Below are positions 1 to 49,687 of a stretch of 64,000 nucleotides of DNA, piece by piece. The position numbers were made by a program, and so were the translations under genes. The notes beneath the pieces are model-generated. The model was given only the letters and a program-made list of their open reading frames with translations, did not search any database and was not told the DNA's origin. The DNA comes from an uncultured virus (IMG/VR IMGVR_UViG_3300031539_000016) (taxonomy: Duplodnaviria; Heunggongvirae; Uroviricota; Caudoviricetes): IMG/VR virus record IMGVR_UViG_3300031539_000016. The stretch is one strand, 5' to 3'. Each line of letters opens with the position of its first letter. The stretch's first letter is position 1.

Positions 1-131
1 CACTTTTGGACTATGAGCCCACTTTTATATTGTAGTGAGCCCACACTTTTGGACTATGAGCCCACTTTTATATTGTAGTGAGCCCACACTTTTGGACTAT
101 GAGCCCACTTTTATACCATAGTGAGCCCACT
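1..131. repeat. 43-bp tandem repeat (3 copies visible, likely truncated by window start), iteron-like
   Basis: CACTTTTGGACTATGAGCCCACTTTTATA recurs at 1, 44 and 87; core TGAGCCCAC recurs at alternating 23/20-bp spacing. Confidence 0.9.
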
Positions 132-150
132 AATTATAAGGAGTGTTATT

Positions 151-372
151 ATGAAATGTATTACATACAGAATAGATGATGAAAAGTACGGACTACTAAG
201 AAATTATTGTACTAAGCATACTATGAGTATACAGAAATTATTAGATAGTCGTGTTGATAGTGTCTTGAAAAGCGAATATAAGTATTGTAGCTGTGGAATA
301 AACTTATTTACCCTACCAACACAAGATAGGATATTACACCTTCAAAACTGCAAAAATGGGCATAATAAGTGA
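151..372 (+). CDS. small ribbon-helix-helix-like DNA-binding protein with C-terminal Cys/His cluster
   Basis: AGGAG SD before ATG at 151; MKCITYRIDDEKY..L beta-helix-helix pattern; CSCG...HLQNC. Confidence 0.45.
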   Translation: MKCITYRIDDEKYGLLRNYCTKHTMSIQKLLDSRVDSVLKSEYKYCSCGINLFTLPTQDRILHLQNCKNGHNK

Positions 373-499
373 TTAAGCTCTTCATATACTACCTATATAG
401 TAAAAGAATACGGTTTTGTTCTGTACATCCTTTATTATCAGCTTAATGGGGGGTTTTGTTCCCGGCGAGAAAAGAATTCGGTATGATATAGTGGTTTCG

Positions 500-850
500 T
501 TAAATGATCCTATCAGTAAGCTCCTCTAAACGTAATGCATGTTCTTCCTTATCTTGTGCTTTATTTACCTGTTTTTGTAGTTTTTTGCTCAACCGTTGCC
601 ATTCAGGATCAGCCTTGTAGTTCGGCTTCATTTTCATCTCTGCCTGCTTGTCAGCCTTCTCTTCCAGGTCGGTGTAGAATTCTCGCCGGGATAAATCAGG
701 TTTACGGTCCTTAGAAACGGCCGGCTTCGGATCATACTGCCTTAATAGATAACCCACAGCCACAATTCCGCCAGCTAAGAGAATCCAGCCAGGATGATAC
801 AGTAGTAAATACAAACAAACAGTGCCTACCAAGAGGATAATTACATTCAT
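500..850 (-). CDS. hypothetical membrane protein
   Basis: GGAGG SD before MNVIILL; two hydrophobic segments followed by a charged tail. Confidence 0.55.
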   Translation of the reverse strand: MNVIILLVGTVCLYLLLYHPGWILLAGGIVAVGYLLRQYDPKPAVSKDRKPDLSRREFYTDLEEKADKQAEMKMKPNYKADPEWQRLSKKLQKQVNKAQDKEEHALRLEELTDRII

Positions 851-922
851 GTATCCTACCTCCAGTAAATTGCGAACAGCCAAAACAAAAAGGGTGCTAG
901 AGAAAAGAATTCGGTCTTAAGT

Positions 923-966
923 AAAAAAATAAGGGCTAGCCTCATTACTGAGGCTAGCCCTATTTT
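923..966 (-). terminator. intrinsic terminator (possibly bidirectional)
   Basis: AGGGCTAGCCTC-attact-GAGGCTAGCCCT stem with an A-run on the left, just past the SSB-like stop. Confidence 0.85.
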
Positions 967-993
967 CGGACGGATTATCACCGGTACTACATG

Positions 994-1677
994 TTACCCA
1001 AACGGATTGACTTCCAACGCGACTGCGGCTGCATTAGCCTTGGCCTGTTTCAGCCTTGCTACTTCGGCTTCCATTCGTGCAAGTTCAGCATCCGCTACTG
1101 CTACCGGGGGACCTGCGACGGCGCCATTACCAAGGAATCCCTGACCCTTGATATAAACTCTGGCACAACCGTAACGCCCAGTTTGTGCGGCCAACTGCGG
1201 ATTGTAATCATACGCCGGGGTTTTGGTTATTGCGATCAAGTAATCAGGCGTAATCGTGCAGTTCGGAGGAAGCAACCCTTCCTGGATGGCCCGAGCGATG
1301 TTCTGGCCTACCCTCTTGACGAGTTCTTTCTTCGAGTCGGCAGAGAATTCAAAGGATTTCACATGAAAGTTCGTATTCCTCTGTAATTCCTGTTTCCCAT
1401 TGGGCTTGATCACTCCGGTGGGTTTCGTGTGGGACCTGAGTACACCGTGGATATTGATCGCACGCCCCTTGTCAATATACAGGGCAGCCTTCTGTGCATA
1501 TCCAGCCCAGAACACCAGGCTGATCTCGTCCGTCATTTCCTGCCCAGTGGTTTTGTTCTTCCCACGATTTTTGATAACCGTCAGAAGACACCGGTGTTTC
1601 TTGGGATCGTCTGAAGGGAAGAAAGTGGGTTCTCCTGCCGCTCTTACGTTACTAAGTGTTAGGATATTGTCTATCAT
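994..1677 (-). CDS. ssb: single-stranded DNA-binding protein-like (OB fold)
   Basis: ISLVFWAGYAQKAALYIDKGRAINIHGVLRS matches the SSB core pattern; GGAGG SD before ATG at 1677; C-terminal NPFG. Confidence 0.7.
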   Translation of the reverse strand: MIDNILTLSNVRAAGEPTFFPSDDPKKHRCLLTVIKNRGKNKTTGQEMTDEISLVFWAGYAQKAALYIDKGRAINIHGVLRSHTKPTGVIKPNGKQELQRNTNFHVKSFEFSADSKKELVKRVGQNIARAIQEGLLPPNCTITPDYLIAITKTPAYDYNPQLAAQTGRYGCARVYIKGQGFLGNGAVAGPPVAVADAELARMEAEVARLKQAKANAAAVALEVNPFG

Positions 1678-1795
1678 GGTATTACCTCCAAATGTTTTGA
1701 ATGTTAATAAAGTGCTACTAATAACTAAAATGTTGGTGCATCCGTCCAAACTTAATAAAAATCAATCAATTAAATGGTTTGAGCCGCTATGGCTG

Positions 1796-2359
1796 TTAAT
1801 CTTCCCAGGGCGGATCGTCTTCGTCAATTATACCCACTTGACTAAATGGGCGTCTATGTGGTTCCGCCCCTGCTTTTAGAGTTTGCATAACAGGTTCAGC
1901 ATCCTCGATTAATACTTCCCATTCTTGTCCCGCGAAAAGATCCCTGTGGACAACGAATTTGACTTCTTCGTGAAGTAGATTGAGATGCATCTTGTCACCA
2001 TCTTCGTTTTCGATAGTAAAGGCACTTTTGTCCCATTTCTTGGCACCGCCCGCGATCATTACTTGGATGCCTCTGGCTGTGAATGCAAGCGGCCCTTCGC
2101 ACAAATACTCCATGGAATCAAGCCACTCCTTGAACTTCAGGGTGTTTAACATATAGTTATATGTATAGATAAGTGGCTTGTCTGCCTTTATTTCTTGGAT
2201 GGTGACGTCTATCCGTAACCCATATGGAGTTTCATTCTTGATTACCTGGCCAATCGTCAAGCTCGCATCCTTCAATTTCTTCTCCAGGAACTTCGCCGAC
2301 GAAATCAAGATACTCCTCAATGCTACATCCTTCACCTGTGACACCATAGGTAATTTCAT
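1796..2359 (-). CDS. hypothetical protein with acidic tail
   Basis: 187-aa ORF in tightly packed - strand operon, ends DEDDPPWED. Confidence 0.6.
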   Translation of the reverse strand: MKLPMVSQVKDVALRSILISSAKFLEKKLKDASLTIGQVIKNETPYGLRIDVTIQEIKADKPLIYTYNYMLNTLKFKEWLDSMEYLCEGPLAFTARGIQVMIAGGAKKWDKSAFTIENEDGDKMHLNLLHEEVKFVVHRDLFAGQEWEVLIEDAEPVMQTLKAGAEPHRRPFSQVGIIDEDDPPWED

Positions 2360-2666
2360 TGATATCCTCCATTAGTTCGGGGTCATCGTTTATGATAACC
2401 GTTTCTTGTTCAGGTTCTTCCATCAATGCCTCTTGTAATTCCGGGCTCAGTCCTAACAGTACTTGTATATCCGCCACTTCCTTGGGCAGTACTTTCTTTA
2501 CTTGCCTACTGAGGGCATCGAGAATGAAACAGACTGCCTGCCCAATCTCGAAACCCTCATTTCGGCACCAGAAAACGCCCCCTCTAGGCGAACTTATACT
2601 AATCTTTGCCCTGTCTGCTGAGACTGACCGGACTATGCCGTAATTGGCGTTTATGAATCTACTCAT
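2232..2666 (-). CDS. hypothetical protein
   Basis: ORF overlapping both neighbours in the operon; acidic C-terminus. Confidence 0.5.
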   Translation of the reverse strand: MSRFINANYGIVRSVSADRAKISISSPRGGVFWCRNEGFEIGQAVCFILDALSRQVKKVLPKEVADIQVLLGLSPELQEALMEEPEQETVIINDDPELMEDINEITYGVTGEGCSIEEYLDFVGEVPGEEIEGCELDDWPGNQE

Positions 2667-3303
2667 TGTACTCATCCCATTCCGGTGGTTCATCCAGGTC
2701 GGCTATCTGGTCATACACATAGTCAGGCACGGCTACACCATCTGGTATTTCCGGCAAATCGTCTATGTGCAAACCCTCGATCATAGACGCTGCCATTGAT
2801 GTGCCCGCTGTACCAGGAATGTCCTTGGAATTGGGATTGTTGACATCCTGCTCAATGTGGGCATAGGCGGCATCCTCTCGTGCCCTGTGCTCTGGCGTGT
2901 TATAGTTATTAGGCGCCGGTGTTGTGGCAGGAACAAAACTCGCTATCCACTCACCATTCTGGATACGCCCAAGAAACTTGTTAGCGGTGCTGTTAATAAC
3001 CCACATGATTTGGCTGCCCTGCCTTGCAAGAACAGCATACTGCCCCAAATTACCAAAGTTGTCCACCTTGTTTGGATTTTGTTCAATGCATCGCAGACTA
3101 AGTATTCGATCGCCCAGATTACAGCTGAAATCAAATCCCCTTAGAGTGTGCTGCCCGGTTGAAGAGTCTTTGAACCATCTGCCTGTGAATTTACCAGTAT
3201 TGGTTGTTAACACTGTCGTTGTTATGTCTGTGTTCTGAATCTTGGATTGAAAGATTGCCCTAAAAACCAGCTTCAAAAGTTCCATTCTTTGTTCGTTGGT
3301 CAT
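2659..3303 (-). CDS. hypothetical protein
   Basis: 214-aa ORF, AGGAG SD, ATGA overlap with the upstream gene. Confidence 0.65.
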   Translation of the reverse strand: MTNEQRMELLKLVFRAIFQSKIQNTDITTTVLTTNTGKFTGRWFKDSSTGQHTLRGFDFSCNLGDRILSLRCIEQNPNKVDNFGNLGQYAVLARQGSQIMWVINSTANKFLGRIQNGEWIASFVPATTPAPNNYNTPEHRAREDAAYAHIEQDVNNPNSKDIPGTAGTSMAASMIEGLHIDDLPEIPDGVAVPDYVYDQIADLDEPPEWDEYNE

Positions 3304-4010
3304 GATTTTCTCCTTATAATTGTTGGGTGTTTATGTTCAGTATGGTCCAAATCCAATGCATCGTAGGCGGTGAGATATCTTATATTGTTCATCTTTCCAC
3401 CAGGATGTCCCTCATCAATCGATTTGAGCAGCATGGCTGTTTCTTCCTTAGTGCCATATCCCTTACTATTAGCCGCTGCTTCCTCCGCGCGTGCTACTAA
3501 ATTGGTACCTTGCAGATCAATTTCCTCGTTAACTACCTCTGGCATTTGGCCGTACATTATGTTGAGTAAGGACTTTAGCTTGCCCCCTACCCAGCCCATT
3601 TCGTTCAGTGTGGGCATGTCACTATAAAGTGCCCAGCGGCATGTTGACTCCATCCCGATAGAGCACGCCTCATCTTCGTAGATTTGGGGCAGTGAATTTA
3701 ATGCCACCAGATCTGGTTCTTGTTCTAATTGCTCAACATGAACCAGTTCGTGGAAGAAAGTATATACGAGATTGAACCATACATTGGCAGTGTACATTAT
3801 ACCTTTCTTCATCCACTTTTTGTGTATTAGACAGGCGCCCATATCTATGTATATAGTGCCTGTTTCGGGCTCGAATGCCCCGGTATCCCCATCAAGTTCT
3901 TCTATGAACGCGTCAAAGATTACTCGCTTTACAGATTTATGTTCTTCACACGCCTCGTGTACTATACGTACTAACTCCGGCGGTGCACCCTTATTATCTA
4001 TTATTTCCAT
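3300..4010 (-). CDS. hypothetical protein with HExxH motif (possible zinc metallopeptidase fold)
   Basis: FFHELVHVEQ; strong GGAGGTGAT SD. Confidence 0.55.
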   Translation of the reverse strand: MEIIDNKGAPPELVRIVHEACEEHKSVKRVIFDAFIEELDGDTGAFEPETGTIYIDMGACLIHKKWMKKGIMYTANVWFNLVYTFFHELVHVEQLEQEPDLVALNSLPQIYEDEACSIGMESTCRWALYSDMPTLNEMGWVGGKLKSLLNIMYGQMPEVVNEEIDLQGTNLVARAEEAAANSKGYGTKEETAMLLKSIDEGHPGGKMNNIRYLTAYDALDLDHTEHKHPTIIRRKS

Positions 4011-4016
4011 TTCATA

Positions 4017-4253
4017 TCACCTCCTCGTTATAGGTTCATTGCACGGTTTGAGCCGAAATGGCTGTTTGTTAGTTGTGGCTATTGCCTGTTTTAAGTCCTC
4101 GATTAGGTCTTTGAACTTCCATGATTGCGTGCCGTCAGTATAACCGTCGCCGTCATCGTTCATCGTGTCGAATACGAGCTCCTCGTCTATATAAGTGACT
4201 AATGCTTTTGCTGCTTTTACTATATCTTCCATTGCTTTCTCCTTTCTGTTCAA
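4017..4253 (-). CDS. hypothetical protein
   Basis: 78-aa ORF in operon. Confidence 0.5.
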   Translation of the reverse strand: MNRKEKAMEDIVKAAKALVTYIDEELVFDTMNDDGDGYTDGTQSWKFKDLIEDLKQAIATTNKQPFRLKPCNEPITRR

Positions 4254-4444
4254 AGATTTATGTTCATAGGCGGTTAGAGCTGCTTTGGCTGTATTGCTGT
4301 TATGGCTGTGGGCTGTTGGTATTATCTGGCTGTTCTACACAGGCCGTGCAGGTGCCACTGTTCCGTAGTTGAAGGGTTGGCTGTACATAACCGACTGTTC
4401 CGAATAACCTGGCTGAGCCGTCGCCGACCCAGCTACTCCTATGA

Positions 4445-5257
4445 TTATGCATACTTAAAAGGATCCACGTCGTTGCCAACACTCATAGCTTTCTGCTCTT
4501 CCCATGGAACACTCTCGTCACCGAACGGATTAGGCTGTAATACTGATGCTTGTGGTGCTTGTGGTGCTGGGGTCTGTGACGATTGTGCAGCCTTTATAGA
4601 TGCAATCCTCTTCTCAATAGCAGCAATTTCATTATCGATATTAGCAATATCGATACTATCAATTGGTGCCGGTGAACCATCATGATTGACCTTATGCGAT
4701 ACAGTCTTACTCGCATATTCCTGGGCAGTGAGTACTTTGGCATAGTCAGCAGGATCGGTCATCTCTACCAAGAGTTCTACCCATGGTACCTTAGTTCCAT
4801 TGTTAGGGTTGTTAGGATCCTTTCCCATGAAGTAGGAAGGCACAAATTGATGATGCATGGTTTGTATTTCTACCTTAGCACCACTGCGGCATCGGTCATG
4901 TTCTGGTGGGGGAGAAAGAATGCCGTGATCATCGATTTGACTGTACATCTTGAATCTATATTTGATTGGCATACCATTCTTACGTTTGGATATCCTAATA
5001 GCATCCTTCTTCTTCTGGTCGGAGCTGAGTGCAGGATCAATAGAACCCTCAGAGATTGCGACAGTTTGCCCAGACTCACTGGTAAGATAAACCAGTGTAG
5101 CACCACACTTAGGGCATCTGGTGTACTCACGAGAAGAATACATACCCTTACGACATGCAGGACAGGTTCTATCGAACAGTAGATTGTCATGCATTAAAGT
5201 ACCAACAAGCTTAAACGCATAATTCGCACTTCTTTTGACACTTACTTGATTTTCCAT
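4445..5257 (-). CDS. zinc-ribbon protein with SSB-like coiled/acidic tail
   Basis: CPAC...CPKC; tail with NPFG and DPF. Confidence 0.55.
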   Translation of the reverse strand: MENQVSVKRSANYAFKLVGTLMHDNLLFDRTCPACRKGMYSSREYTRCPKCGATLVYLTSESGQTVAISEGSIDPALSSDQKKKDAIRISKRKNGMPIKYRFKMYSQIDDHGILSPPPEHDRCRSGAKVEIQTMHHQFVPSYFMGKDPNNPNNGTKVPWVELLVEMTDPADYAKVLTAQEYASKTVSHKVNHDGSPAPIDSIDIANIDNEIAAIEKRIASIKAAQSSQTPAPQAPQASVLQPNPFGDESVPWEEQKAMSVGNDVDPFKYA

Positions 5258-5316
5258 AACACCTCCATAGTAGTTTATTTGAGGACAGTGTAGCTCCTGA
5301 CGTCTTTCGACCGGCC

Positions 5317-5778
5317 TTATCCTTTTAATTTGTTTGTATTCAAGAAGACATTCCTTACTGCCATCAATAATCTTCCTAGATAGTTTTCACCACACCAAGC
5401 TCCTTGGGCATCCTTTACCATCCCCCAAAAATAGTCTTTCCACCAGTTACCCTCTATTAGTATGGCGTCATCAGTTGCACAGAGTTTGTCTTGAAGCCAT
5501 TTGTTTTGGGAAAACTTACAATAGAGTATCATACCCATTTCGGTTATTTTAACCTCATCCCAGTCAGGCCGACAAGTTATTTCACGCCCTCTATGTTTAG
5601 CTTCGGTTGGGGTGTTAGCATCTGATATATACGCCCTGTCCTTTTCGTTTGTTGCTTTACATGCTGCAAAGGCATGTTCGGAACTTTTATAGGTATGGTT
5701 ATTATAAATAACCGATGTACCATAAAAGTTGGATAAAAAGGAATACTCACCTCTGAAATTGTCTATTATTTTTGTCAT
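5317..5778 (-). CDS. NADAR (YbiA-like) hydrolase
   Basis: FLSNFY, SSEHAF, AKHRGR, DWDEVK, KFSQN, LIEGN.W.DYFWG, GENYLGRLLMAVR motifs. Confidence 0.9.
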   Translation of the reverse strand: MTKIIDNFRGEYSFLSNFYGTSVIYNNHTYKSSEHAFAACKATNEKDRAYISDANTPTEAKHRGREITCRPDWDEVKITEMGMILYCKFSQNKWLQDKLCATDDAILIEGNWWKDYFWGMVKDAQGAWCGENYLGRLLMAVRNVFLNTNKLKG

Positions 5779-6206
5779 AATACACCTCCCATCATTTTGA
5801 CGCATTCAGGACCGATGCCTGATTTAATGGATTTGGGGTTAGTAAGGTTACGTCCGCATCTGCAACAGGTGTTGTGATGGTATATTGCCATAGTTTTGGG
5901 CATAGAGTTATTAACAACATGACGCCATGCCCACACAAACGATTTACACACAACATAATAACGAGGCATGCTCTTTTTAGTGTAAAAGAACTTGTGCCCT
6001 TTACTGATACACCCCACATAACGATATCCGGAATCAGTTTTAGCCCATACAAAATGGACTTGTGCGTTTCTTTTGGAAACCGTTATTCTATAAGTTAGAT
6101 GTTTATTGGTTGTGTTACTACATACAGTGAATAGAGCTTTACCACCAACCATGTATGCCTTAGCCTTTTCCGCCGTCTCTAGACGTGTAGGAACCATTAT
6201 AGTCAT
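5775..6206 (-). CDS. DUF6011-like zinc-binding protein
   Basis: C-terminal CCRCGRNLTNPKSIKSGIGPEC. Confidence 0.75.
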   Translation of the reverse strand: MTIMVPTRLETAEKAKAYMVGGKALFTVCSNTTNKHLTYRITVSKRNAQVHFVWAKTDSGYRYVGCISKGHKFFYTKKSMPRYYVVCKSFVWAWRHVVNNSMPKTMAIYHHNTCCRCGRNLTNPKSIKSGIGPECVKMMGGVL

Positions 6207-6334
6207 TTTCTTTTCCTTTCTCGTACCATTTGTATTTAATAAATTTACTTATCATTCGGTGCCCACGAGTGGTACGATGTCTCTGATGAGCACCTTTATT
6301 CCTTTTACTATTGAATTGTTTGTTTCCGTTTCGC

Positions 6335-6604
6335 CTAGGCATTGTCACCTGCTTCCATCTCATCACAGTCTTTGGCTATACGATCAAGTTCTTTGGCACT
6401 ATTAGCAGCTTGTGTGAGCTCGAATGCAAGTGTTAATGCCTCGTCTGCGGTTAAGTCACATGACCCCTTGGTTACATACCCATGTAGATAATCACCACGT
6501 GGTGGTGCTTGATGTTTGGGGTCCTCATAGAGAACAAACCAATCATCTTCAAAGGCCAACAAAACATCTGGACCATCTCCCCATGTACAAGTTGCTCTTT
6601 TCAT
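6335..6604 (-). CDS. hypothetical protein
   Basis: AGGAGG SD, 89 aa. Confidence 0.55.
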   Translation of the reverse strand: MKRATCTWGDGPDVLLAFEDDWFVLYEDPKHQAPPRGDYLHGYVTKGSCDLTADEALTLAFELTQAANSAKELDRIAKDCDEMEAGDNA

Positions 6605-6620
6605 TATATTACCTCCTTTA

Positions 6621-7034
6621 TTAGTTATATATCAAATATAGCTTTTGTTGATTGTTAGATACCAGTTCTTTTTTACCCTCCAAAATAAGAATACCTGTTT
6701 TAACACCGAATTTTAAGGCATCCTTTGTTTTTACCATAAAGATATCGACCTGGAGCTTTTTACGTTTATGCATTCTGTCCTCGAATGTTAGTGTTTTGTG
6801 GCCCTCCAGGATGACATTGTCACCAAACTTGAAGTCAAAAAGAGCTTCCAAGTCTCTGGAGAGTGCAACAATTCCAGGACGTACTTTCTTTCCAGAAGCA
6901 GTAATGGTTGGAGTTGAGTCAGTTTCACATTTTCGTGCGGAATAAGCAGTTAGTGTAACATGGACTTTAATAGGTTCTGCAAAAGCCAAAGATCCGATGG
7001 ACATAAAGACAAGAACAAGGACTAGTGTTTTCAT
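6621..7034 (-). CDS. 3D-domain secreted peptidoglycan-acting protein
   Basis: signal peptide; VTLTAYS..ETD.TP.ITASG, IVALSRDL, EDRM, VDIFM. Confidence 0.8.
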   Translation of the reverse strand: MKTLVLVLVFMSIGSLAFAEPIKVHVTLTAYSARKCETDSTPTITASGKKVRPGIVALSRDLEALFDFKFGDNVILEGHKTLTFEDRMHKRKKLQVDIFMVKTKDALKFGVKTGILILEGKKELVSNNQQKLYLIYN

Positions 7035-7368
7035 TATATCATCCTCCGTATTCGTTTCCATAATGTTCGTTCATAGAGCCAGCATATTTCCCTAGCAAGT
7101 CGCCTGGGAAATACTTTCCGAAGTCTACAATAGACATGTAGAGGGTTAAGTTTATGCTGCAATATCTTACTACACATGTCGATCACCTCCCTTCTTAATT
7201 ACATATTAGTTTCTAACTGTTCCATCTTGTCCACCATAGAACTCTTCGTTCTCGTGGAATTTGAGTTTATCCCAATTACGTATCTCAATGATATTGTCCT
7301 TTGCCAATCCTAGTCCATTATATGGAAATAACTTGGAAAGAATCCATTGAATAAATCTACTTATCATA

Positions 7369-7683
7369 TTACTTACCTCCTCTCTGATTGTTTACTACAA
7401 GTTTTAACTTTCTTTCTACCACAATAGGGACTTTTTTGGCGGCGAGAATTTCCATACACAACAGGCGCCCATGTTCAAGATCCTCAATTGAATCAGTTAT
7501 CCCTACCAGAGTAGTTGTGGCAACTATAGCTCTTTTGTGACAGTCCGTTTCAATCGCACGTTTTTTGATTTTCTTCATCACTTCAAGAGATCTACGTAAT
7601 ACCTGAAGATACTCATCTATCGTTATCAGGTTTCTTTTGGCTATTTTCTTTTCTTCATCAGTCATAGTATCACCTTCTTTCAT
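7369..7683 (-). CDS. hypothetical protein
   Basis: 104-aa ORF in - strand block. Confidence 0.5.
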   Translation of the reverse strand: MKEGDTMTDEEKKIAKRNLITIDEYLQVLRRSLEVMKKIKKRAIETDCHKRAIVATTTLVGITDSIEDLEHGRLLCMEILAAKKVPIVVERKLKLVVNNQRGGK

Positions 7684-9217
7684 GAGAGTTTAATGGCAGG
7701 GGTATTCAAACCCCTCCAAATTTGCAGATTACACATTACTAGTTCTTCATTCTACCTACGCATAGATATCTATGCCTTCTGTAGTAAGTTGTTTGGGTTT
7801 AGGATCTTTTATTTGTGTTACTGGTTTAGGTTCTTCTTCTATCCGCTCATATACAAGAACGAATCCACCGCACTTAACAGCAACACGTATGATTTTATGC
7901 ACCATACTTGCCTCCTGTGCGTAAGTGTTTGATGGATTTATTGTTGAACTGTTTACGTTTGGCTCGAGCTCTGAATTTATAAGATAGATGGGTTGGTTGT
8001 TGATTAATTACATCCATGTTTAGATTGAGTTCATCATCAACCAGTTTGGGCTCTTCTTGAGCTTCAACCTCAGCTATCATTGTATCGAGCTTCTTCTGCC
8101 AGTTGCGATTACATAACGCAACAATCCAAGGTATCAGTTTCATCTACCACCTCCTTTATTGTTTTTTAACCACTCTGCGAATTCTTTGTCAAAATCACCT
8201 CCTCTTGCCTTGATGATGTCTCTTGCTATCATCTCTACCTTGGTGAATGCCATACCACCTTCAAGGTCTTTACGCATAAAGTCCACCATTTCCTCATACT
8301 CTCTACTTCCTGGTTCTGGTATACCCATACAATCACCTCCATTTGTGTTTTGTACGGGGGCCATGCAGCCCCCGCATGGACTATTACACTTCCATTATAT
8401 GGAAGGGGAAGTCCAGACCGAGATCCGTCAGCCGACGAATTTCTTCGTCTTCTACATCAGGATCAAAGTCAAACCTATCCTCACAGGTATCCATACTATC
8501 ACCTCCCTTCTATTGATATAGTCTTTCCGGCCATTGATAGTTTGCGGCCCAACGAGTTTCTGAATTGATATCGCTGGATTCGTATATTTGCCACCAGAGC
8601 CATTCATGAAACATACTATCACCTCCTTTCTAATAAGCTATTCCATTTTTCCACTTTTCTGTCTTGGGAACTATAGGCTTGTAATAGACCCAATTCACGA
8701 GTCTGTCAACACAACCCAACAGAATGACAAACTCACCTCTACCAGTGCGACCGAAGTCAAGTTCCCACAACGCATATGCGCCGGAGTAATAGACACGGAA
8801 ATACTTCCATTCTATCAGTCGCAAGTGTTTCTGATTCTTTCTCATAATTCACCTCCTAGAATAGTAATAGAATCCATACGCATACCATACAGAAACAAGA
8901 CATACATAATTCTACTGTACTAAGACTATTCCAAATAGCTATCTGTTTACGGATTATTGCGGTCAAGAACATACCAATCACCTTCTTTCTTATCGAACAG
9001 TTGTAGGTTGTTGGTTGAATACACGCCTTTATCAGTACAAAGGTACGTATAAGCTATTCCCTGAAATGTTTTGGTTACAGGTTCTTTGATGTAGTAGGGC
9101 TCTCCTATACTGACGAATCCCACTGCTTTGGCACCGTGTAGAAATACGATGTCAAACCGTTTATTTACCACTTTTACCACCCCCTTTCTTTATTTAGATT
9201 TAAGTCCTTAAAGACTT

Positions 9218-9285
9218 GTGTCCCCACGGGAGGGAATCGAACCCTCCCCGAAACCCAGCCTCTCGGCCTTCCTGGGTAGGGGCAC
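9218..9285 (-). ncRNA. tRNA-like three-way-junction RNA with T-loop
   Basis: GUGCCCCUAC/GUGGGGACAC closing stem, GCC-GAGA-GGC hairpin, GGGAGGG-UUCGAUU-CCCUCCC T-arm; no anticodon arm. Confidence 0.55.
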
Positions 9286-9291
9286 TAGCCT

Positions 9292-9320
9292 TCAAAGAAA
9301 GGGGGACCGAAGTCCCCCCA
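9292..9320 (-). terminator. intrinsic terminator with UUCG tetraloop
   Basis: - strand GGGGGAC-TTCG-GTCCCCC followed by TTTCTTT, after the stop at 9327. Confidence 0.8.
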
Positions 9321-9326
9321 TAAAGA

Positions 9327-9611
9327 TTACGCCTTAGCGACCATGGCCTTCAACTCTTGTTCTTTTGCTGCCTGTGTACGAGCAAGTTTCTTTGTTTGCT
9401 CATAGTCTTTCCTCTGTTTGCGATTTCTTCCAGTCTTTGCGAAGATTCCACAATCATAACAAACAAGAGGTTTGCCTTCAGGCTTTCTGGCAACAATGTT
9501 CTTTTTGAGTGCTGTATGAGACACCCCTTCTGCACCACGAACTTTGCAACATCTGGGATTGGCACAGAACACATCCACACTTCTCTCTGCGAAACTAAAA
9601 GGTTTTTTCAT
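9327..9611 (-). CDS. Cys-rich hypothetical protein
   Basis: CANPRC...CYDC; SD present. Confidence 0.55.
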   Translation of the reverse strand: MKKPFSFAERSVDVFCANPRCCKVRGAEGVSHTALKKNIVARKPEGKPLVCYDCGIFAKTGRNRKQRKDYEQTKKLARTQAAKEQELKAMVAKA

Positions 9612-9663
9612 AATAACACACTCCTCTCTATCTAAAGGTTTATACCAAACATCTCATACTCTA

Positions 9664-9757
9664 ATCCACTAAGAGATACAACCACTTATGTCTACATCGT
9701 GTGAGCCCCCTTTTAGAGCTCTGGGGTACTCAGTGACGATGTGTGTAGGTAATATCC
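9664..9757 (-). ncRNA. structured hairpin element, copy 1
   Basis: 60-nt core 48/60 identical to copy 2, with three compensatory pairs; strand inferred from gene context. Confidence 0.65.
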
Positions 9758-10300
9758 TTTAGTGGGTGGGGGAGACCCTATGCCTCCCCCGGCCCTGGTT
9801 GGAAGTTATGCAATCACCATCTTGCGAAGGACGAGGTTACCCTTCCTAACCTCTTTAAACAGTTTATCTGTGCGTGTAGTAGACGCAACCAATCTGACGA
9901 GGTTTCGTTCCATGTTACTAAATGTAATAAAACCCCTCTTTTTACTGTCATTAGTGCGCTTACCCTCGATTGCTGGTTTAATCAGGTCTCTATAGATATT
10001 ACCTCTCATCTTGTATCTCCTCTAATTCTTTGATGAGTGCATCTGTGGGATGTTCCTCATCTATGTTATTGTCAATCCTATTCTCCTCGTCGAGGTAATA
10101 GGCCCCTTCACCGATGTCGTCTAAGAAATCAAATTCCATAATACCTCCTATAGACGGGCTAGTAATGTTGCATGTTGTTGTTTGTGACCGCAGTGTGGAC
10201 ATACTACAGTTGCGATCGTGTCATCCTCTTTAAGAGGAAACCCTTTACCACAGTGTTCACATGATAACATTTATATCACCTCCTTCCGTATTTGGTTTTC

Positions 10301-10399
10301 ATCCACTTATATGAATACAGCATGGTTTTCTACACCGTGTGAAACCTCTTATGTTGCTCTGAGGTATTCAGTGACGGTGTTTGTAGGTTAAATGTATCC
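10301..10399 (-). ncRNA. structured hairpin element, copy 2
   Basis: homologous to 9664-9757 with covariation; strand inferred from gene context. Confidence 0.65.
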
Positions 10400-10554
10400 A
10401 TAATAGGGGGATGAATCCCCTTTCTTCTGTTAAAGGTTATTTGATAGAGACGGGGCTATAACCTTTATATATAAGTTTATTTACATACACTGTATAATAT
10501 GGGGTCCCTATTACGATAAATTTGAGCCAATCTGTCTTTTCGACTACGATATAT

Positions 10555-10583
10555 CTAGCAAAAAAGCAAAAATATTCTATAAT
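10555..10583 (+). promoter_or_regulatory. phage promoter CTAGCA-N17-TATAAT (copy 1)
   Basis: same motif and exact 17-nt spacer at six sites upstream of genes. Confidence 0.8.
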
Positions 10584-10637
10584 ACTATTAAGTGGTAATA
10601 TTTAATGAATTACACTATCTATTAGAGGAGGAATACT

Positions 10638-11186
10638 ATGAAAGCTCTAAAAAACACACTTCTATTGGTATTATGCTCCCTATTTCTATTATCGGCTTGC
10701 GCAGGGTTACAACCTAATAAGCCTGTTGTAACTAACTCTACACCGGAGGAAGTAAAATCACCGGAGCACCCACCCTTAGATTTCTATGTTAAACACGATT
10801 GTTGGAGGAGCTCGTTCAACCCACATGAGGTTCTGCAATATTGGGCAAAGCTAGATGATCGACAGATTAGTGAAACGATGCTTTTGGTTATTGTAGGAAA
10901 CCCAAAAATAAATTGGGAACGAGACTACCAAATAGGAACAAACTATTCAGACATGCCAGTACCAGCAGGGGAAATAACATCAGCTGTTATATTTGCCTTT
11001 ATACGAGTAGATATATCAACAATAGAATTAGCGGTTTTTGGTTATAAAGATAAAGACGATATTTCTTATACATACAGATGGTCAAAAACAGATAATTGCT
11101 ATCTATTACACCCGGCAGCTGATCAAGCTGCTTGCTTTAATAATAACTATTTTGTTGCTAAATTAATTGATCCTACCGATAGATAA
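10638..11186 (+). CDS. putative lipoprotein
   Basis: signal peptide with LSAC lipobox. Confidence 0.65.
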   Translation: MKALKNTLLLVLCSLFLLSACAGLQPNKPVVTNSTPEEVKSPEHPPLDFYVKHDCWRSSFNPHEVLQYWAKLDDRQISETMLLVIVGNPKINWERDYQIGTNYSDMPVPAGEITSAVIFAFIRVDISTIELAVFGYKDKDDISYTYRWSKTDNCYLLHPAADQAACFNNNYFVAKLIDPTDR

Positions 11187-11226
11187 TATTGTGGGGGAGT
11201 AATCTCCCCCAACTATTATATTTTAT

Positions 11227-11255
11227 CTAGCAAAATTTCTAAAATATTCTATAAT
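11227..11255 (+). promoter_or_regulatory. phage promoter CTAGCA-N17-TATAAT (copy 2)
   Basis: CTAGCA aaatttctaaaatattc TATAAT, just after a GGGGGAG-taat-CTCCCCC hairpin. Confidence 0.8.
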
Positions 11256-13401
11256 ACCTATAAAGTAGATAATATATAAAGGGGGGGGATGCATGAATTA
11301 CTCAATATTACACACAGTTCGGGATAAGGGATATGAACGCAGTCCACGCACCTCAACCATTGAGGTCAGCGGTAATACTCTTAGAGTAGATGACCAAGGG
11401 CATTTATTTGTAGAATATATAAGAGAAGATGAAAAAGGAAATCAGCGCAAAACTGTGAGTGCGGTTTTCAAGGATTGGGAAAGAGCAGTGCCAGTGCCTG
11501 TGTATCCTTCTAGTGCTACTTCATCTATTTCAAGCGCTTCAAAGAAAGGACCAGGAAAATTGGTATTAAATAAGGAGAAATAATATGAAACCAAGGGGTG
11601 GAGACAAAAAACCCACTATAGAAGAAGGACCAATAAAATTACCTATTTAAAAACCAGATACCGGAGGAGAATTTAAAATGGATTACGCAAAAGTATATGA
11701 ATATGAAGTAGTTTATGGAGATCCAGGAGAAGATAATACCATAGTGCTAGAAGCAGACGAGGTTTCAGTAACTAATTCCGGATATTTATTTCTAAATTTA
11801 AATAGAAAGACTGTAATGGGATTTAGGAGATGGCAAAAATTGACAAAATTGGATGCCAGAGGAGAATAATCAAATGAGAATTAAACTAGATAGTAATGTT
11901 TTACCTGTAATAGTTGTAATACTTATAGTATTATTTCTATTTATTAATACTAATTGTGCAGGAACTCAGATTAAGCCCGTAGAAAAAATACCCGTGACTT
12001 TCATAAATGAAAATCCGGGGGTAACACAACTAGGTTTGGTTAAGTTTATAATAGATAAGAACGGAGAAAAAGTAGATTATAAATTGATGAACTTACGCTG
12101 GGATTACAAATTGTATGTAGTAGACTTGGAACCAGGGGTATACGGGGTAACCCAGTGGGCACCAGAAATAGATAAAGTAGTAGCATACCAAACGATTACT
12201 GTGGGTAAATTCCCTATGATAGTAAAATTTCAAAGGATATTCTAATGAAAATATTAAGTATGGATGAACATGAAGATGGATCAGCCACTCTAAGTATAGA
12301 TTGTACAGATGAAGAAGTAGAATTTCTAATAGGCTACGCAATAAGGGATATATTGAGAAAGTCTATAAACAATGAGAATTAAAAGGATAAAAGGAGAATA
12401 AAATGGAGTGGTTACCCGGTATAATAATACTAGTATTTATACTATTAATTATATATGTATCATGGGCAGAACGATATCATAATAAAAAAATGAAAAAATT
12501 GGCAGAAGCAAATCCTGAGCTTGTGTCACCTGTAGTTATGCCAAACGGTAGCGCACCAGTACTAAAGTGCAAATGCGGAAGGAAGATTATTATATAAATG
12601 TTTGAAGATATTTTAGGAAAAGACAAAAGATATGTAAAGACAGAAATGTGGCTATTAGGTATAAACACAGAAGATTACGAAGTAGAAGTGTTTAATGTAG
12701 GAAAAAATAATGATGGAGGCCTGGAAGGGTATATTAAGGATAGTACATATGTAATAGATAGATATACTAATTATACTATACAAATGCCTAAAACGCCACA
12801 CCATGTAATTAGAATAATAGTACTAAGAGTAAACGAACATACATTGAAATTTTACGTACCAAAGATTAAATAGATGGAGTTAATAGCTTATTTATGTGTA
12901 ATTGCATTATACTGTAATATCTTTGGATCAGGTGTTTTGTTTTTAGAATTTATCAGATTAGAAATAGCGGAGGCATGGAAAAATGTTCGAGGATCTGGTA
13001 AGACAGAAAAAAGTACCAATAGAGAAACAAATTGAAAGCTGCCCGTATTGTGGTTCTTATATCATACAAAGAAGTGAAAAAAGATGTACAATGGACGACA
13101 AATGGACTCAAAAAACAACATGTAGGTTATGTAATAAAAACTGGACTTTAGTATACAACGAAGACCAGACGCCGTCTCATATAATATTAGACAAACATAG
13201 GAAAAATAAAAAATGAGTATAGCACTAATATTGAGTATAATAGTATTTATAGGAATATGGATACTAAGTTTGGTAATATTTGGATTCACTTTTGAAATCT
13301 TCGTAATAGGAGGAGTAGTATCAGCTATACTTAGTGTACTATATTATAGATTACTAATGTATATAGTATATAAAGATAAAAAAAATGTGGAGGAATGTTA
13401 A

Positions 13402-14016
13402 ATGGGATTAAATGGTGTATATTATGACGAAGTAAAATACTGGAATGCACGTAAAAATCCAGTATCACCAGATGGACGAAAAGAAGTTGTTACATGGATC
13501 ACACACCACTTAAAGGGAGCTGAGTCTATATTAGACTTTGGGCCAGGTATAGGTGGAACATTTTCTGCTTATCACAATGCAAAACAAGTAAATACTGTTG
13601 ATATTTCTACATTATATTATGATCAGTTATGTAAAGAAGCAAAAAAGTACCCATTTAAGTTATCCACACTACTTTTATCTCAACCAGAAGATGCTACACA
13701 TTTACCATTTGAGACAAATTCACATGATTTTGCGGTTACTAGTCAAGTAATTCTTCATATGAAACCTCATTATGTCAATGAAGTTCTGATTGAATTAGGC
13801 CGTATTGCAAAAGAAGTTGCAGTTATCACATATATGGATCCAAAATTTGAATATGACACTAGTAATACAAGTTATCCAAAAGATAGATATTGTTTTAACT
13901 ATAATATACCCAAAATGTGTAAAGATCTCAAACTAATAACTAGGAATGTAAAATTTGAACGTAGAAATGTGTGGTTAATTTATTCAAAAATAGAAAGAAC
14001 TGGGGAGATATATTAA
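13402..14016 (+). CDS. class I SAM-dependent methyltransferase
   Basis: ILDFGPGIG motif I, VDIS, LPFETNSHD, VILHM. Confidence 0.8.
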   Translation: MGLNGVYYDEVKYWNARKNPVSPDGRKEVVTWITHHLKGAESILDFGPGIGGTFSAYHNAKQVNTVDISTLYYDQLCKEAKKYPFKLSTLLLSQPEDATHLPFETNSHDFAVTSQVILHMKPHYVNEVLIELGRIAKEVAVITYMDPKFEYDTSNTSYPKDRYCFNYNIPKMCKDLKLITRNVKFERRNVWLIYSKIERTGEIY

Positions 14017-33699: not shown

Positions 33700-33706
33700 T
33701 AACTAT

Positions 33707-33735
33707 CTAGCAAATTTAGTAAAATATTCTATAAT
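33707..33735 (+). promoter_or_regulatory. phage promoter CTAGCA-N17-TATAAT (copy 6), predicted leaderless transcript
   Basis: ATG at 33742 starts 7 nt after the end of TATAAT; no SD. Confidence 0.75.
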
Positions 33736-33741
33736 ATAAGT

Positions 33742-37361: not shown

Positions 37362-37627
37362 TGGCGCTGCCCGAATCTGCATTTCAAACACCTTACTGGA
37401 TTAGATATAAAGAAGGGGCTACGTTATCAAGGGACAATAAGCTGAGATTTGCCGATATGGATTTGCAATACGATAGCCAGCCTAATCGTAGTTGGAGAAA
37501 CAAGCCTCAACCGGGATATAATGCCCAGAGTCCAAGTATAACTGTAGATAGGGTTATTTTAAGTACAGATACCCCATACATTCGTGCTCGTTAGTATTGG
37601 GGTTTTTTTATTGAAAGGAGAATTAAT

Positions 37628-38200
37628 ATGGAATTAAAGGAAAGGTTAGAATTATTCAAGGAAGAACTAAATCTTATATCCAACACAGCTATTAGGGAAT
37701 TTGTGGAAGCTTGCATAGAAGCTTCTCCTGATTATGTGTTTGAGGATTGCCCTTCAAGTTCAAGTGGAAAATATCATCCACTGGACGAGCTCGGCTCGGA
37801 CGGGACGGTTCTACACACTAAACGTGTTTTTGCGTTGGCGTATGAACTAAGTAGAGGGCTTGATTGTGAGCATCATAGGGATGAGATATGCGCTGCTGCA
37901 CTTTTGCATGATATGGCAAAACGGGGGTTAACAAATCCTGTGCATACAGTAAAAGATCATCCTCAAATAATGGCTAATTTGGTTGCTGAGGTTTATAAGG
38001 AAAGATTTAAAGATAAATTGAATAGAGAACCGGCTTTGATGATTTACTATGGTATTTTATACCATTATGGGCCGTGGAGTGGGAGAGATATAAAAAAACC
38101 TCTTTCTGAATATACACCAGAAGAATTGTGTGTATATGTGGCTGATTATGTGAGCAGTAAGAAGTTTGTGCATATAGACCATAAAAGGATAGGTAATTAA
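37628..38200 (+). CDS. HD-domain phosphohydrolase
   Basis: SSSGKYHP, G..LHT, AALLHDMAK, HYGPW, ADY. Confidence 0.85.
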   Translation: MELKERLELFKEELNLISNTAIREFVEACIEASPDYVFEDCPSSSSGKYHPLDELGSDGTVLHTKRVFALAYELSRGLDCEHHRDEICAAALLHDMAKRGLTNPVHTVKDHPQIMANLVAEVYKERFKDKLNREPALMIYYGILYHYGPWSGRDIKKPLSEYTPEELCVYVADYVSSKKFVHIDHKRIGN

Positions 38201-38454
38201 ATGTGATGGATCGTAGATATATTCCAGAAGGTGGTATAAGAAAACACAATGAAAAGATACACAGAGAAAGTAAGATAGCTGATGATTACAAGAAGCTGCC
38301 TTTTGAATTTTCTAAACCGCCTAAAAATAAAAGACATGAATGGTTTGAATGTATTGAATGTGGGAGAATAATAGCATTGCCAGTAAATACGGTTATGTAT
38401 GCTTGTACTGATTGTAAAAAAGCGACTAAGGTAGAAAAAATAAAGGGGTGAATT

Positions 38455-38937
38455 ATGGAATGGCATGTATGGACTATAGCACAACAAAGGTATAAAAGGG
38501 TAAAGGAGTTTTTGGAAAGTTTGTCGGGGATTAGTGAGTATTTTTATCCTACAGTAATTAAAGAATACCAAACTAAATCTGGTAGAAAAACTAAGAACAT
38601 CCCTCTATTTAGTAATTATATATTTATTAGATATGAATACAATGATTTCATACACGCTAAGATATCCAGTAACAATTGGATTAAAGATTATGTGGGTAAA
38701 TGCTCACAGAAAGAGATGGAGGATGTTTTAATATTATCTAAAAAGAAATATGAGGATTTAGTGCCCACCAGTGAAATACAAAAAGGATACAGCTATAAGT
38801 TGATAGGAACACCGTTTAAAGATATGACTTGTACTGTAGTAGATATAGATGGGGACAAACTGGTTGTATCTGTAGAACTGTTTGGGTCAGGCAGGCTTAT
38901 AAAGTGCTTAATTACTGATATTGACTTAGAAAGGTGA
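38455..38937 (+). CDS. NusG-family transcription factor
   Basis: WHVWT start, PLFSNYIFI NGN motif, GTPFKD KOW, VSVELFG. Confidence 0.85.
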   Translation: MEWHVWTIAQQRYKRVKEFLESLSGISEYFYPTVIKEYQTKSGRKTKNIPLFSNYIFIRYEYNDFIHAKISSNNWIKDYVGKCSQKEMEDVLILSKKKYEDLVPTSEIQKGYSYKLIGTPFKDMTCTVVDIDGDKLVVSVELFGSGRLIKCLITDIDLER

Positions 38938-38941
38938 TACA

Positions 38942-39382
38942 ATGGAAGATATGGTTGTAGTTATTAAAAAGAGGGGCAGGCCGTTTGGCTACAAAGTAAG
39001 TGAGAGTACTAAAGATAAAATAGGTAATTGTAGATTAGGTACTCATCATTCTAAAGAAACTAAAGATAAGATCTCTAAATCTTTAATAGAATATTTTAGA
39101 AAAAGAAATTCGTTATCAACAAATATTGAACAGGAATATGGTTATATATCCAAAGAAATATTCGATTGGATTTATGATAACAAAGACGATATTGATGATA
39201 TTGATTGTGTGATGACCGAAAGAAAACTTTCTTATTTAAGTCAATTGGAGTTGTGTTTGGGCAACGATATAGAAAATTTTTTTGGGCACAACGTTACTCC
39301 GGAATTTTTATTAATATTAAAGGAAGAAATAGAATCAATTTTTGGTAAAGACCGGGTCATAGAATTATGTTCTTTGTTGTAG
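38942..39382 (+). CDS. NUMOD3-motif DNA-binding protein
   Basis: RGRP, SESTKDKIG, HSKETKDKISKSL. Confidence 0.65.
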   Translation: MEDMVVVIKKRGRPFGYKVSESTKDKIGNCRLGTHHSKETKDKISKSLIEYFRKRNSLSTNIEQEYGYISKEIFDWIYDNKDDIDDIDCVMTERKLSYLSQLELCLGNDIENFFGHNVTPEFLLILKEEIESIFGKDRVIELCSLL

Positions 39383-39392
39383 AGGAGATGGT

Positions 39393-39917: not shown

Positions 39918-39918
39918 A

Positions 39919-42918: not shown

Positions 42919-42937
42919 TCTAACCATGTTTTAATAG
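42919..42937 (+). promoter_or_regulatory. candidate late promoter TCTAACCATGTTTTAATAG
   Basis: 17/19 identical to 45425; intergenic before the portal region. Confidence 0.5.
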
Positions 42938-42973
42938 AGGCGTATCCTCTATATTATATTAAGGAGATTTGTT

Positions 42974-43429: not shown

Positions 43430-43461
43430 TATGTAATGAAATATAAATAGGGAGTACCTAC

Positions 43462-45411: not shown

Positions 45412-45424
45412 TGGCAGATATTTA

Positions 45425-45443
45425 TCTAACCATATTATAATAG
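45425..45443 (+). promoter_or_regulatory. candidate late promoter TCTAACCATATTATAATAG
   Basis: matches 42919; precedes the head genes. Confidence 0.5.
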
Positions 45444-45482
45444 GAACACTATCATTTTATTTTATTAGGGGGAGGACTTGAT

Positions 45483-46547: not shown

Positions 46548-46573
46548 AAATTTAATATAGGAGGAAATCGCTC

Positions 46574-46975: not shown

Positions 46976-47094
46976 TATTATATAGTTACTTTGTATATGT
47001 GCATTAGGTTAAGGAAATGGGAAATTATAATTATTGATACGAGGTTGGTAGTTAATTTTTAAGTGAAGAAAAATTATTGTAGGAGGTTTAGTTT

Positions 47095-49663: not shown

Positions 49664-49687
49664 TATTAATTTTATAAGGATATGTCG

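Follow-up and report, generated by a model that had tools for sequence, protein, structure and literature searches.

A conserved intergenic RNA hairpin with a modular apex in the leftward gene block of an uncultivated jumbo phage

Introduction

The early operon of phage T7 carries RNase III processing hairpins between its genes, which are long, imperfect and intercistronic. The present work concerns two related hairpins that likewise lie between genes, in a 64,000-nt stretch of DNA from an uncultured virus of the Caudoviricetes (IMG/VR record IMGVR_UViG_3300031539_000016), hereafter called the window, which is part of a large uncultivated jumbo phage. For RNase III, the idealised substrate is a helix of 22 bp, or two turns, and internal loops can direct single-strand cuts (PMC3867540). 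In T4-type phages, the PeSL cassettes are intergenic elements of ~100 bp with a polyG...polyC stem-loop and, at their 3' end, a Shine-Dalgarno sequence and an ATG (Arbiol et al. 2010, PMC2839356). The putL and putR sites of phage HK022, ~70 nt each and similar to each other, are found downstream of early promoters, and put RNA adopts two stem-loops in a V shape with a triplex (PMC9378689). The hairpin used by LoaP in the dfn and mln operons is small, carries a UNCG tetraloop and stands in the 5' leader (PMC12691694). Lastly, in operons with selective processing and stabilization of RNA (SRPS), intergenic stem-loops set the relative stability of the segments of a polycistronic mRNA (PMC4423207, PMC8219983).

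Set beside these systems, the RNA fold of the window is strand-specific, under selection, non-coding, uncatalogued and modular, and it stands at the boundaries of gene cassettes. We tentatively regard its copies as a structured cis-acting RNA element in a leftward polycistronic mRNA of this phage, a possible intercistronic module of processing or stability whose apex would be recognised by a protein.

Results

Two copies of one RNA hairpin

The ungapped 60-nt cores at 9691-9750 and 10329-10388 were identical at 48 of 60 positions when recounted, as a sequence-only reading of the window had reported, and a repeat search returned one family, 9691-9755 / 10329-10393 (65 nt, 78% identity). Half of the 12 differences make up the three compensatory pairs put forward in that reading (9697/9739, 9705/9729 and 9709/9724). 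Among the others, 9706 C>A gains an additional A-T pair, the apical loop accounts for four, and an unpaired flank for one; no pair is broken by any of the 12. When 12 random substitutions were placed on copy 1, at least three compensatory pairs together with no broken pair arose in 12 of 200,000 trials. A degenerate pattern of the shared core matched the 64 kb twice, at the two copies themselves, with 0 matches expected from shuffles. The two stretches fold into the same long RNA hairpin, its pairs are kept by matching mutations, and this fold is real. Its parts, and the stem-loops that precede it, are as follows.

9664..9767, minus strand: copy 1, whole hairpin of ~104 nt, basal stem and apical core; minimum free energy (MFE) -37.9 kcal/mol, z -3.5; orthologues in the related loci L004, L005 and L006
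9681..9750, minus strand: core of copy 1; 97.3 bits with covariance model R1
10301..10405, minus strand: copy 2, whole hairpin of ~105 nt, basal stem and apical core; MFE -28.9 kcal/mol, z -3.4; orthologue in the related locus L003
10319..10388, minus strand: core of copy 2; 91.5 bits with R1
9768..9790, minus strand: G/C-rich stem-loop of 9 bp, immediately upstream of copy 1 and lacking a subsequent U-tract
10406..10420, minus strand: G/C-rich 15-nt stem-loop upstream of copy 2, followed by UAUUAUG

The element is bigger than the initial description had it, since a three-helix core of 64-70 nt is carried on a basal stem to give a hairpin of ~105 nt. The arms of this stem are 9664-9683 with 9748-9767 in copy 1, and 10301-10319 with 10392-10405 in copy 2. 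The flanking ATCCACT (9664-9670, 10301-10307) and TATCC (9753-9757, 10394-10398) are indeed present in both copies, but they are the arms of the basal stem and no separate motifs, a point that had been missed. The RNAalifold consensus, in minus-strand sense, holds 33 pairs in three helices, 31 of them formed in copy 1 and 26 in copy 2. The core has paired segments of 7, 4 and 5 bp, with a CAC/C internal loop between the first two, a bulged U between the second and the third, and a 12-nt loop beginning with AGAGC at the apex, and it is closed by a 3-bp helix across joining strands of 5 nt and 10 nt. The loop start AGAGC (minus strand) and the CAC internal loop are identical in the two copies, as had been claimed. 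By-eye inspection for a pseudoknot found no conserved complement of the 12-nt loop in the joining strands.

Both copies are embedded in a cassette with a constant order, 5' to 3': a G/C-rich stem-loop, an abutting long hairpin rich in A/U and G·U, a leader of 15-45 nt, a Shine-Dalgarno site and a start codon. On the minus strand, each copy indeed comes after a G/C-rich hairpin (9768-9790; 10406-10420) and precedes a gene with a Shine-Dalgarno site, the start codons being at 9611 and 10270. In cassettes of the copy-1 type, the long hairpin begins at the base right after the G/C stem-loop. In those of the copy-2 type, the sequence UUCAUCC, formed by the loop and 3' arm of the G/C stem-loop, is complementary to a GGAUGAA just past the long hairpin, and this extended pairing is the MFE fold in three of four cassettes (copy 2 of the window and two cassettes of L006). 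The bases of UUCAUCC and GGAUGAA are invariant, and covariation is thus no test of that alternative pairing.

Conservation among related phages

A strict scan of JGI metagenome contigs with the core pattern gave six loci. L002 and L007 belong to the same phage (99.98% identical to the window), as does G001/L001 (window 37392-51784 at 99.9% identity), and all of these were excluded from every alignment. Orthologues of copy 1 were found in L004, L005 and L006, and one of copy 2 in L003. The flanks of L003-L006 were 73-89% identical to the window (blastn), while the cores were identical at 56-57 of 59 positions between copy 1 and its orthologues and at 57 of 59 between copy 2 and L003 (95-97%), so that the core is far better kept than the adjacent coding DNA. 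In the direct comparison with the core, the DNA around it has a blastn identity of 73-78%. The entire 5' leader of the 94-aa protein gene that follows copy 1 is likewise conserved well above coding DNA.

The covariance model that had been suggested as a check, R1, was built on the core and gave the six known copies 91.5-99.8 bits. Beyond these, its next-best match in the window and the six loci reached 13.4 bits (E 0.22), and with filters off it showed no extra copy in window positions 1-14000 (next best, 9.2 bits). R1 also had no match in the records of L008 and L009, two loci with relatives of the 94-aa gene. No match to window positions 8500-11500 was obtained by blastn against 50,697 phage records, no copy by core-pattern scans of IMG/VR viral contigs, and none with the same pattern in the genomes of 185,579 prokaryote species.

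The element does not belong to a known Rfam 15 family, in line with the initial description: at gathering thresholds, the whole window yielded four tRNAs only, all elsewhere. Over 9300-10800 at E<=10, Rfam 15 gave four sub-threshold matches, and the sole one on a copy was mir-7552 (18.5 bits against a gathering threshold of 59, E 8.4). No description of the motif was found in full-text literature, and a catalogue of 10,006 viral candidate RNAs (PMC10690425) gave no match in four of its six supplementary files, a partial search which leaves room for a prior listing.

Selection on the fold and its strand

Covariation was evaluated on six core sequences, which come from five phage genomes, a sample too small for a formal test of the R-scape type. 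Across these sequences, the 16 pairs of the two core helices contained four compensatory double changes. A U-A/C-G and a G-C/A-U change split the two copy types, one C-G to U-A change was private to copy 2 of the window, and another, at the adjacent pair, was private to L004; the sole non-pair among the 16 was an A·G in two of six sequences. Over all 33 pairs, 92.4% of the alignment cells were paired, versus 33-54% when the 3' partners were slid by 1-3 columns. Column shuffles never equalled the observed pairing or covariation score (0/500), and they equalled the count of doubly changed pairs in 6/500.

The strand of the element was indicated by its wobble pairs. The basal stems of nine cassettes comprise 137 pairs in minus-strand sense, 111 Watson-Crick and 26 G·U; these same 26 become A·C mismatches on the opposite strand, although the pairs were drawn from sense-strand folds, which biases the count toward that strand. 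When both strands were folded independently, the sense strand was the more stable in eight of nine cassettes (for example -40.0 vs -15.0 kcal/mol in L008 and -62.9 vs -50.5 kcal/mol in L004), the exception being copy 2 of the window (-37.1 vs -38.6 kcal/mol). Among orthologues, one-sided changes were of the kinds C-G to U-G, A-U to G-U and G-C to G-U. The G·U pairs on one strand, the strand folds and the one-sided changes fit an element that acts as RNA, or at any rate as one strand in leftward-transcript sense, and do not fit a palindrome of duplex DNA.

A peptide gene, which the sequence-only reading had named as an explanation that would count against it, is rejected, since stop codons occur in all six reading frames of all six copies. 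A leader reading frame that opens with the AUG in UAUUAUG was likewise rejected as unconserved: it has 23 codons in copy 2 and, in L003, 11 codons in a different frame. Fortuitous similarity, a gene for a small peptide or a palindrome of double-stranded DNA (a cruciform or a protein-binding site) is a very improbable explanation, close to refuted: a 57-codon plus-strand frame (10218-10391) does cross copy 2, but no frame crosses copy 1, the random substitutions described above seldom produced the observed pattern, and the 26 G·U pairs would be mismatches on the other strand. The unpaired bases of the core, that is the CAC/C loop and the AGAGC loop start, are invariant among the copies and point to a putative sequence-specific recognition. 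Structure, strand, constraint and the Rfam result together support the general proposal with which the analysis began, a functional minus-strand RNA of no known family.

Cassettes without the core

Homologous cassettes were found in which the core is missing, a further point that the sequence-only reading had not noted. L006 holds two further cassettes of the copy-2 type, with the G/C stem-loop, UAUUAUG, a stem of 11-12 bp and GUGGAUGAA, where a 3-nt hairpin loop replaces the core. L008, an IMG/VR contig found through the alignment of the 94-aa family, holds a cassette of the copy-1 type before a 56%-identical 94-aa gene, and here too the core is absent, the stem consisting of 19 pairs, five of them G·U, with an AUA loop at the apex. 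From these core-less cassettes of L006 and L008, the core appears as a separable or optional apical domain on a more widespread hairpin; as some relatives lack it in the equivalent cassettes, it cannot be a necessity for expressing the downstream genes. A more distant relative of the 94-aa gene (39% identity, L009) has no hairpin upstream and was dropped.

The neighbours of the copy-2-type cassettes vary. The genes after copy-2-type cassettes encode a 40-aa zinc ribbon in the window, a 156-aa protein in L003, and a 102-aa membrane protein and a 152-aa protein in L006, while the zinc-ribbon gene sits further downstream in L003 and L006. TATTAT directly follows the stem-loop in four of four copy-2-type cassettes, with A-rich DNA upstream, and is absent from five of five of the copy-1 type. 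A consensus scan found no minus-strand promoter near the stem-loop of copy 2, nor did inspection by eye show a convincing -35 box; a transcript starting 7 nt past TATTAT would remove the 5' arm of the basal stem, which is clearly selected as RNA.

The presence or absence of the core at the apex of homologous hairpins, in both cassette types, raises the question of a DNA-level or selfish feature, in which the core would be an insert spreading between hairpin loops, or the cassettes would be recombination linkers like PeSLs, the RNA fold being secondary. In keeping with this, the genes beside the cassettes differ between the window, L003 and L006, as is the case for PeSL cassettes, which mediate modular shuffling (PMC2839356), and the high identity of the core across diverged genomes could reflect recent transfer. 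However, the 64 kb contain just two copies and the 47-kb contig of a related jumbo phage (G002) contains none; apart from a 5-nt CUACA/UGUAG complement, neither a target-site duplication nor clear terminal repeats can be seen; and the compensatory changes and one-strand G·U pairs bespeak selection on the RNA fold. We hold this explanation to be quite unlikely.

The G/C stem-loops were also followed on their own. A 23-nt pattern of the hairpin matched viral contigs at two loci, L010 and L011, the latter being the contig of L008. At L010 (578-630, minus strand), in an unrelated viral contig richer in G+C, the 23-nt hairpin is that of copy 1 except for a single loop base, T in place of A, and matches the hairpin of L004-L006 and L008 in full. 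It is followed there by a U-tract and then a ribosome-binding site, and looks like a canonical terminator.

Neighbouring genes

Both copies lie within a leftward block of small genes, mostly without a known family. Genes to the left of ~10400 run leftward at ~43% G+C, and those to the right of 10638 run rightward at ~33% G+C. The split in composition is sharp, with 39-46% G+C in the leftward block and 31-39% in the rightward one, and a GC skew of opposite sign (1-10400 vs 10600-64000). Pfam domains in the window include Volactin, a caspase-like protease, ClpP, inteins, HNH endonucleases, many methyltransferases and a NusG-like protein; the region 57088-63537 (plus strand) alone has eight paralogues with a methyltransferase domain (Methyltransf_24 / Methyltransf_23), interleaved with two glycosyltransferases. 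The 47-kb contig of the relative G002, estimated at 17% completeness, suggests a genome of ~280 kb. The genes around the two copies are the following.

9327..9611, minus strand: gene of a 94-aa basic protein, downstream of copy 1; Shine-Dalgarno GGAG at 9621-9624
10148..10270, minus strand: gene of a 40-aa zinc-ribbon protein, downstream of copy 2; Shine-Dalgarno GGAGG at 10279-10283
9806..10009, minus strand: 67-aa gene upstream of copy 1, its stop codon 15 nt before the G/C hairpin; orthologues in L005 and L006

The 94-aa protein has four conserved cysteines (CxxxxC...CxxC) and 16 homologues at 52-97% identity, none of them named. It matches no Pfam or PHROG family and, with an AF2 model of pLDDT 73.6, no PDB entry either by sequence (E<0.35) or by Foldseek. 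A search of genome contigs for its family gave none, nor did single-protein scans of viral contigs with the 94-aa protein and the DUF6011 protein give a match. The 40-aa protein matches Pfam Zn_ribbon_3 below the cutoff (24.2 bits, curated cutoff 27) and has homologous open reading frames (ORFs) in L003 and L006.

Since the proteins encoded after both copies of the window are small, basic and rich in cysteine (40 aa and 94 aa), a translational or autoregulatory operator has to be considered, in which the apex would be bound by a phage protein, possibly the downstream small zinc-ribbon proteins, and would set translation or decay. The invariance of the unpaired bases and the strong conservation of the whole leader of the 94-aa gene are in line with this. 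By contrast, the copy-2-type core of L003 precedes a different gene, of 156 aa, the 94-aa gene of L008 has a cassette without a core, the hairpin stops 15-45 nt short of the Shine-Dalgarno site and leaves it uncovered, and the 94-aa protein matches no RNA-binding family or fold. An operator of this kind thus seems improbable, though it deserves some weight.

Transcription

RNA from this locus was seen in one marine-sediment metatranscriptome, available as contigs only. Two contigs fall on 7000-12500, at 9321-9570 (depth 2) and 9621-9803 (depth 4.6), and together they take in the G/C stem-loop, all of the hairpin and the 94-aa gene, as far as the terminator-like hairpin at 9300-9319. Neither the ends of an RNA nor its strand or level can be read from such contigs, and the uncovered parts (7000-9320 and 9804-12500) are uninformative. 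The two contigs give a weak hint that the unit of hairpin and 94-aa gene is transcribed and relatively abundant. In the contig 9621-9803, the first 30 letters equal the last 30, and an inverted piece, 9640-9661, is joined at each end; these joins may represent a cycle of the assembly graph or a snap-back at the ends of a molecule.

The same contig prompts a further reading, a discrete small RNA of ~180 nt made of the G/C hairpin and the long hairpin, cut from the operon or transcribed within it, which would act in trans or as a stable decoy. The contig is deeper than the coding one (4.6 against 2), it is bounded by the stop codon of the upstream gene and by the Shine-Dalgarno site, and the inverted joins at both its ends are possible at the ends of a molecule. 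However, the contigs are blind to ends, strand and level, the depths stand for few reads, and the inverted joins may be assembly cycles; moreover, a promoter or terminator of its own was not found, and copy 2 had no RNA cover in that run. A separate small RNA is in our view doubtful.

Terminator-like hairpins and a NusG-like protein

Two further features bear on how transcription may run through the leftward block.

9300..9319, minus strand: terminator-like hairpin with a UUCG tetraloop and a U-tract, right after the 94-aa gene
38455-38937, plus strand: protein of 160 aa with a NusG N-terminal domain (Pfam PF02357, 37.2 bits, cutoff 22.2)

The same G/C hairpin with a UUCG tetraloop also follows the 94-aa gene in the relatives, with one additional occurrence in L005 (L004 505-522, L005 1204-1225 and 1544-1562, L006 2261-2278 in sense orientation, and L008 4287-4304); a U-tract comes after that of the window and, for the most part, not after those of the relatives. 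These UUCG hairpins may stabilise 3' ends, or may stop a polymerase for which a U-tract is not required. The spacer beyond the terminator-like hairpin (9181-9326, minus strand) folds strongly (-68.7 kcal/mol over 146 nt) and contains, at ~9225-9290 (minus strand), a tRNA-like T-arm with a GGUUCGAUUCC loop and a 7-bp G/C stem within a longer stem. Rfam gave a weak 17-nt tmRNA match in this spacer (E 0.015, far below gathering) and ARAGORN found no tRNA; the spacer may be a tRNA-like processing signal. The NusG-like protein has an 81%-identical homologue in the related jumbo-phage contig (G002:C1:36932-37411, L012).

Putative promoters were also noted between the two gene blocks and beyond. A 34-nt repeat, 88% identical, occurs on the plus strand at 10552-10585, 11224-11257 and ~33704-33736, with an A-rich upstream part and a TATAAT end, before rightward genes, and is probably the rightward early promoter type of this phage. 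In minus-strand sense, GG(T/A)TATAGCCCC is conserved in the divergent region (window 10452-10463, L006 ~2328-2339, L008 ~3012-3023), 25-35 nt ahead of the first leftward feature; it does not match a sigma-70 consensus and is a candidate leftward promoter or start region. The initial suggestion, that the copies lie close to where the leftward transcript starts, has plausibility for copy 2 alone, on the basis of the conserved divergent region and not of a mapped start.

With terminator-like hairpins and a NusG-like protein at hand, the core could be a processive antitermination signal, in which the nascent core would modify RNA polymerase alone, or recruit the phage NusG-like protein, and so allow read-through of the G/C hairpins of the leftward operon. 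There are two related copies of ~70 nt, the first near the conserved divergent region, and each is upstream of a terminator-like hairpin (9300-9319 with its U-tract; 9768-9790). A protein with a NusG N-terminal domain is encoded in the window (38455-38937), a small RNA hairpin in the leader can be required by specialised NusG paralogues (PMC12691694), and invariant loops fit specific recognition. Against this, the element is one extended hairpin and not the two stem-loops of put, it has a 12-nt apical loop and no UNCG tetraloop, and its two copies share a single operon, where each comes immediately after a G/C hairpin. In addition, G002 keeps the 81%-identical NusG-like gene, the G/C hairpins and the 94-aa gene, and yet has no core in 47 kb, in a record that is ~17% complete. 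We judge antitermination unlikely on balance. Its most far-reaching form, in which the core would be a new class of cis-acting RNA that makes polymerase resistant to termination, alone or by loading the NusG-like factor, and a portable apical module swapped among PeSL-like cassettes of jumbo phages, appears slightly more unlikely.

Discussion

The reading that we tentatively prefer for the two copies, an intercistronic module of processing or stability with a protein-recognised apex, supposes three steps. The G/C stem-loop would end the upstream message or protect its 3' end. On the RNA that reads through, the long interrupted helix of 33 pairs would then form, and could serve as a double-stranded processing substrate of the RNase III type, as a structure capping the 5' end of the downstream message, or as both. 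The conserved apical domain would be the place where a specific protein docks and tunes this step of processing or capping. The intercistronic position of the element fits such a module, as do the G/C hairpins that flank the 94-aa gene on both sides, and the extent of the two low-depth RNA contigs, which coincides with the G/C hairpin, the long hairpin and the gene, is a weak hint in its favour. The 33 consensus pairs, moreover, exceed the length of about two turns given for RNase III helices (PMC3867540).

Several observations weigh against this module of processing or stability. Cleavage, RNA ends and the binding partner are all predicted. The RNA contig 9621-9803 runs through the whole hairpin uncut. 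RNase III sites do not need near-invariant loops, and no RNase III domain was detected among the 108 ORFs of the window scanned with Pfam, the window being only part of a genome of ~280 kb. The core is missing from L008 and from two L006 cassettes, so that its role is dispensable or replaceable. The core-less stems of the copy-2 type, with 11-12 pairs, are short for RNase III unless the UUCAUCC/GGAUGAA extension forms. Lastly, six core sequences from five phage genomes do not allow significance of the R-scape kind. As for the three functions named in the sequence-only reading, an RNase III site, a put-like antiterminator and a protein-binding leader are not distinguishable from each other on the present data, apart from the fact that the two-stem-loop architecture of put is not seen here.

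Jumbo phages of sediments are almost unstudied and, to our knowledge, nothing is known about how their long runs of tiny early genes are timed or balanced. The element offers a concrete handle on this question, as it adjoins terminator-like hairpins at cassette boundaries in a genome with a NusG-like factor. If its apex binds a protein or the polymerase, it would be a new class of phage cis-regulatory RNA that links RNA structure to the modular shuffling of cassettes of early genes. A mere stability hairpin would be one more orphan phage RNA motif, useful in annotation and unsurprising. We rate it as a new sequence and structure family of structured intergenic RNA in phage early cassettes, with an unusual modular apex and a narrow distribution.

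Comparison with known systems

SRPS operons resemble this locus in having intergenic stem-loops in a polycistronic mRNA, but as described in PMC4423207 and PMC8219983 their stem-loops are defined by free energy at 3' ends and not as a conserved sequence family with an apical domain. The hairpin of LoaP, as presented in PMC12691694, shares a conserved leader hairpin, an operon studded with terminator hairpins and a genome that encodes a NusG-like protein. It differs in that the present element has a 12-nt loop and three helices, UUCG tetraloops being confined to the neighbouring G/C hairpins, and in that the relative G002 retains the NusG-like gene without the core (in 47 kb, ~17% of its genome).

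Like HK022 put, in the account of PMC9378689, the window contains two related elements of ~70 nt in a phage early region, which would act in cis on the nascent transcript if they are active, the first of them near a presumed early promoter. The differences are a single extended hairpin with three stacked helices, the absence of sequence similarity by eye, and the distribution of the copies: both belong to the leftward operon and none to the rightward one, instead of one copy per divergent early promoter.

Like the RNase III sites of T7, the element is a long and imperfect hairpin between the cistrons of an early polycistronic mRNA of a phage, present as sequence-related copies within one operon. 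Its helix is longer than two turns, and its internal loops could direct single-strand cuts of the kind reported in PMC3867540. It differs from these sites by invariant unpaired bases, an optional apex and an abutting separate G/C hairpin, and its cleavage is a prediction.

PeSL cassettes, within what PMC2839356 describes, are also conserved intergenic cassettes among small orphan early genes, with a polyG...polyC stem-loop and with a Shine-Dalgarno site and start codon at the 3' end. In both cases, the cassettes stand beside different genes in related phages, in line with variable orphan genes and with gene gain and loss, and the TATTAT of copy 2 is placed where the -10 lies when a PeSL stem-loop separates the -35 from the -10. 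The present cassettes depart from this scheme in that no convincing -35 accompanies them, the copy-1 type lacks TATTAT, and promoter or terminator activity is putative. They also carry a second, long, RNA-conserved hairpin with an apical domain of 64-70 nt, and neither of these is described for PeSLs in that account.

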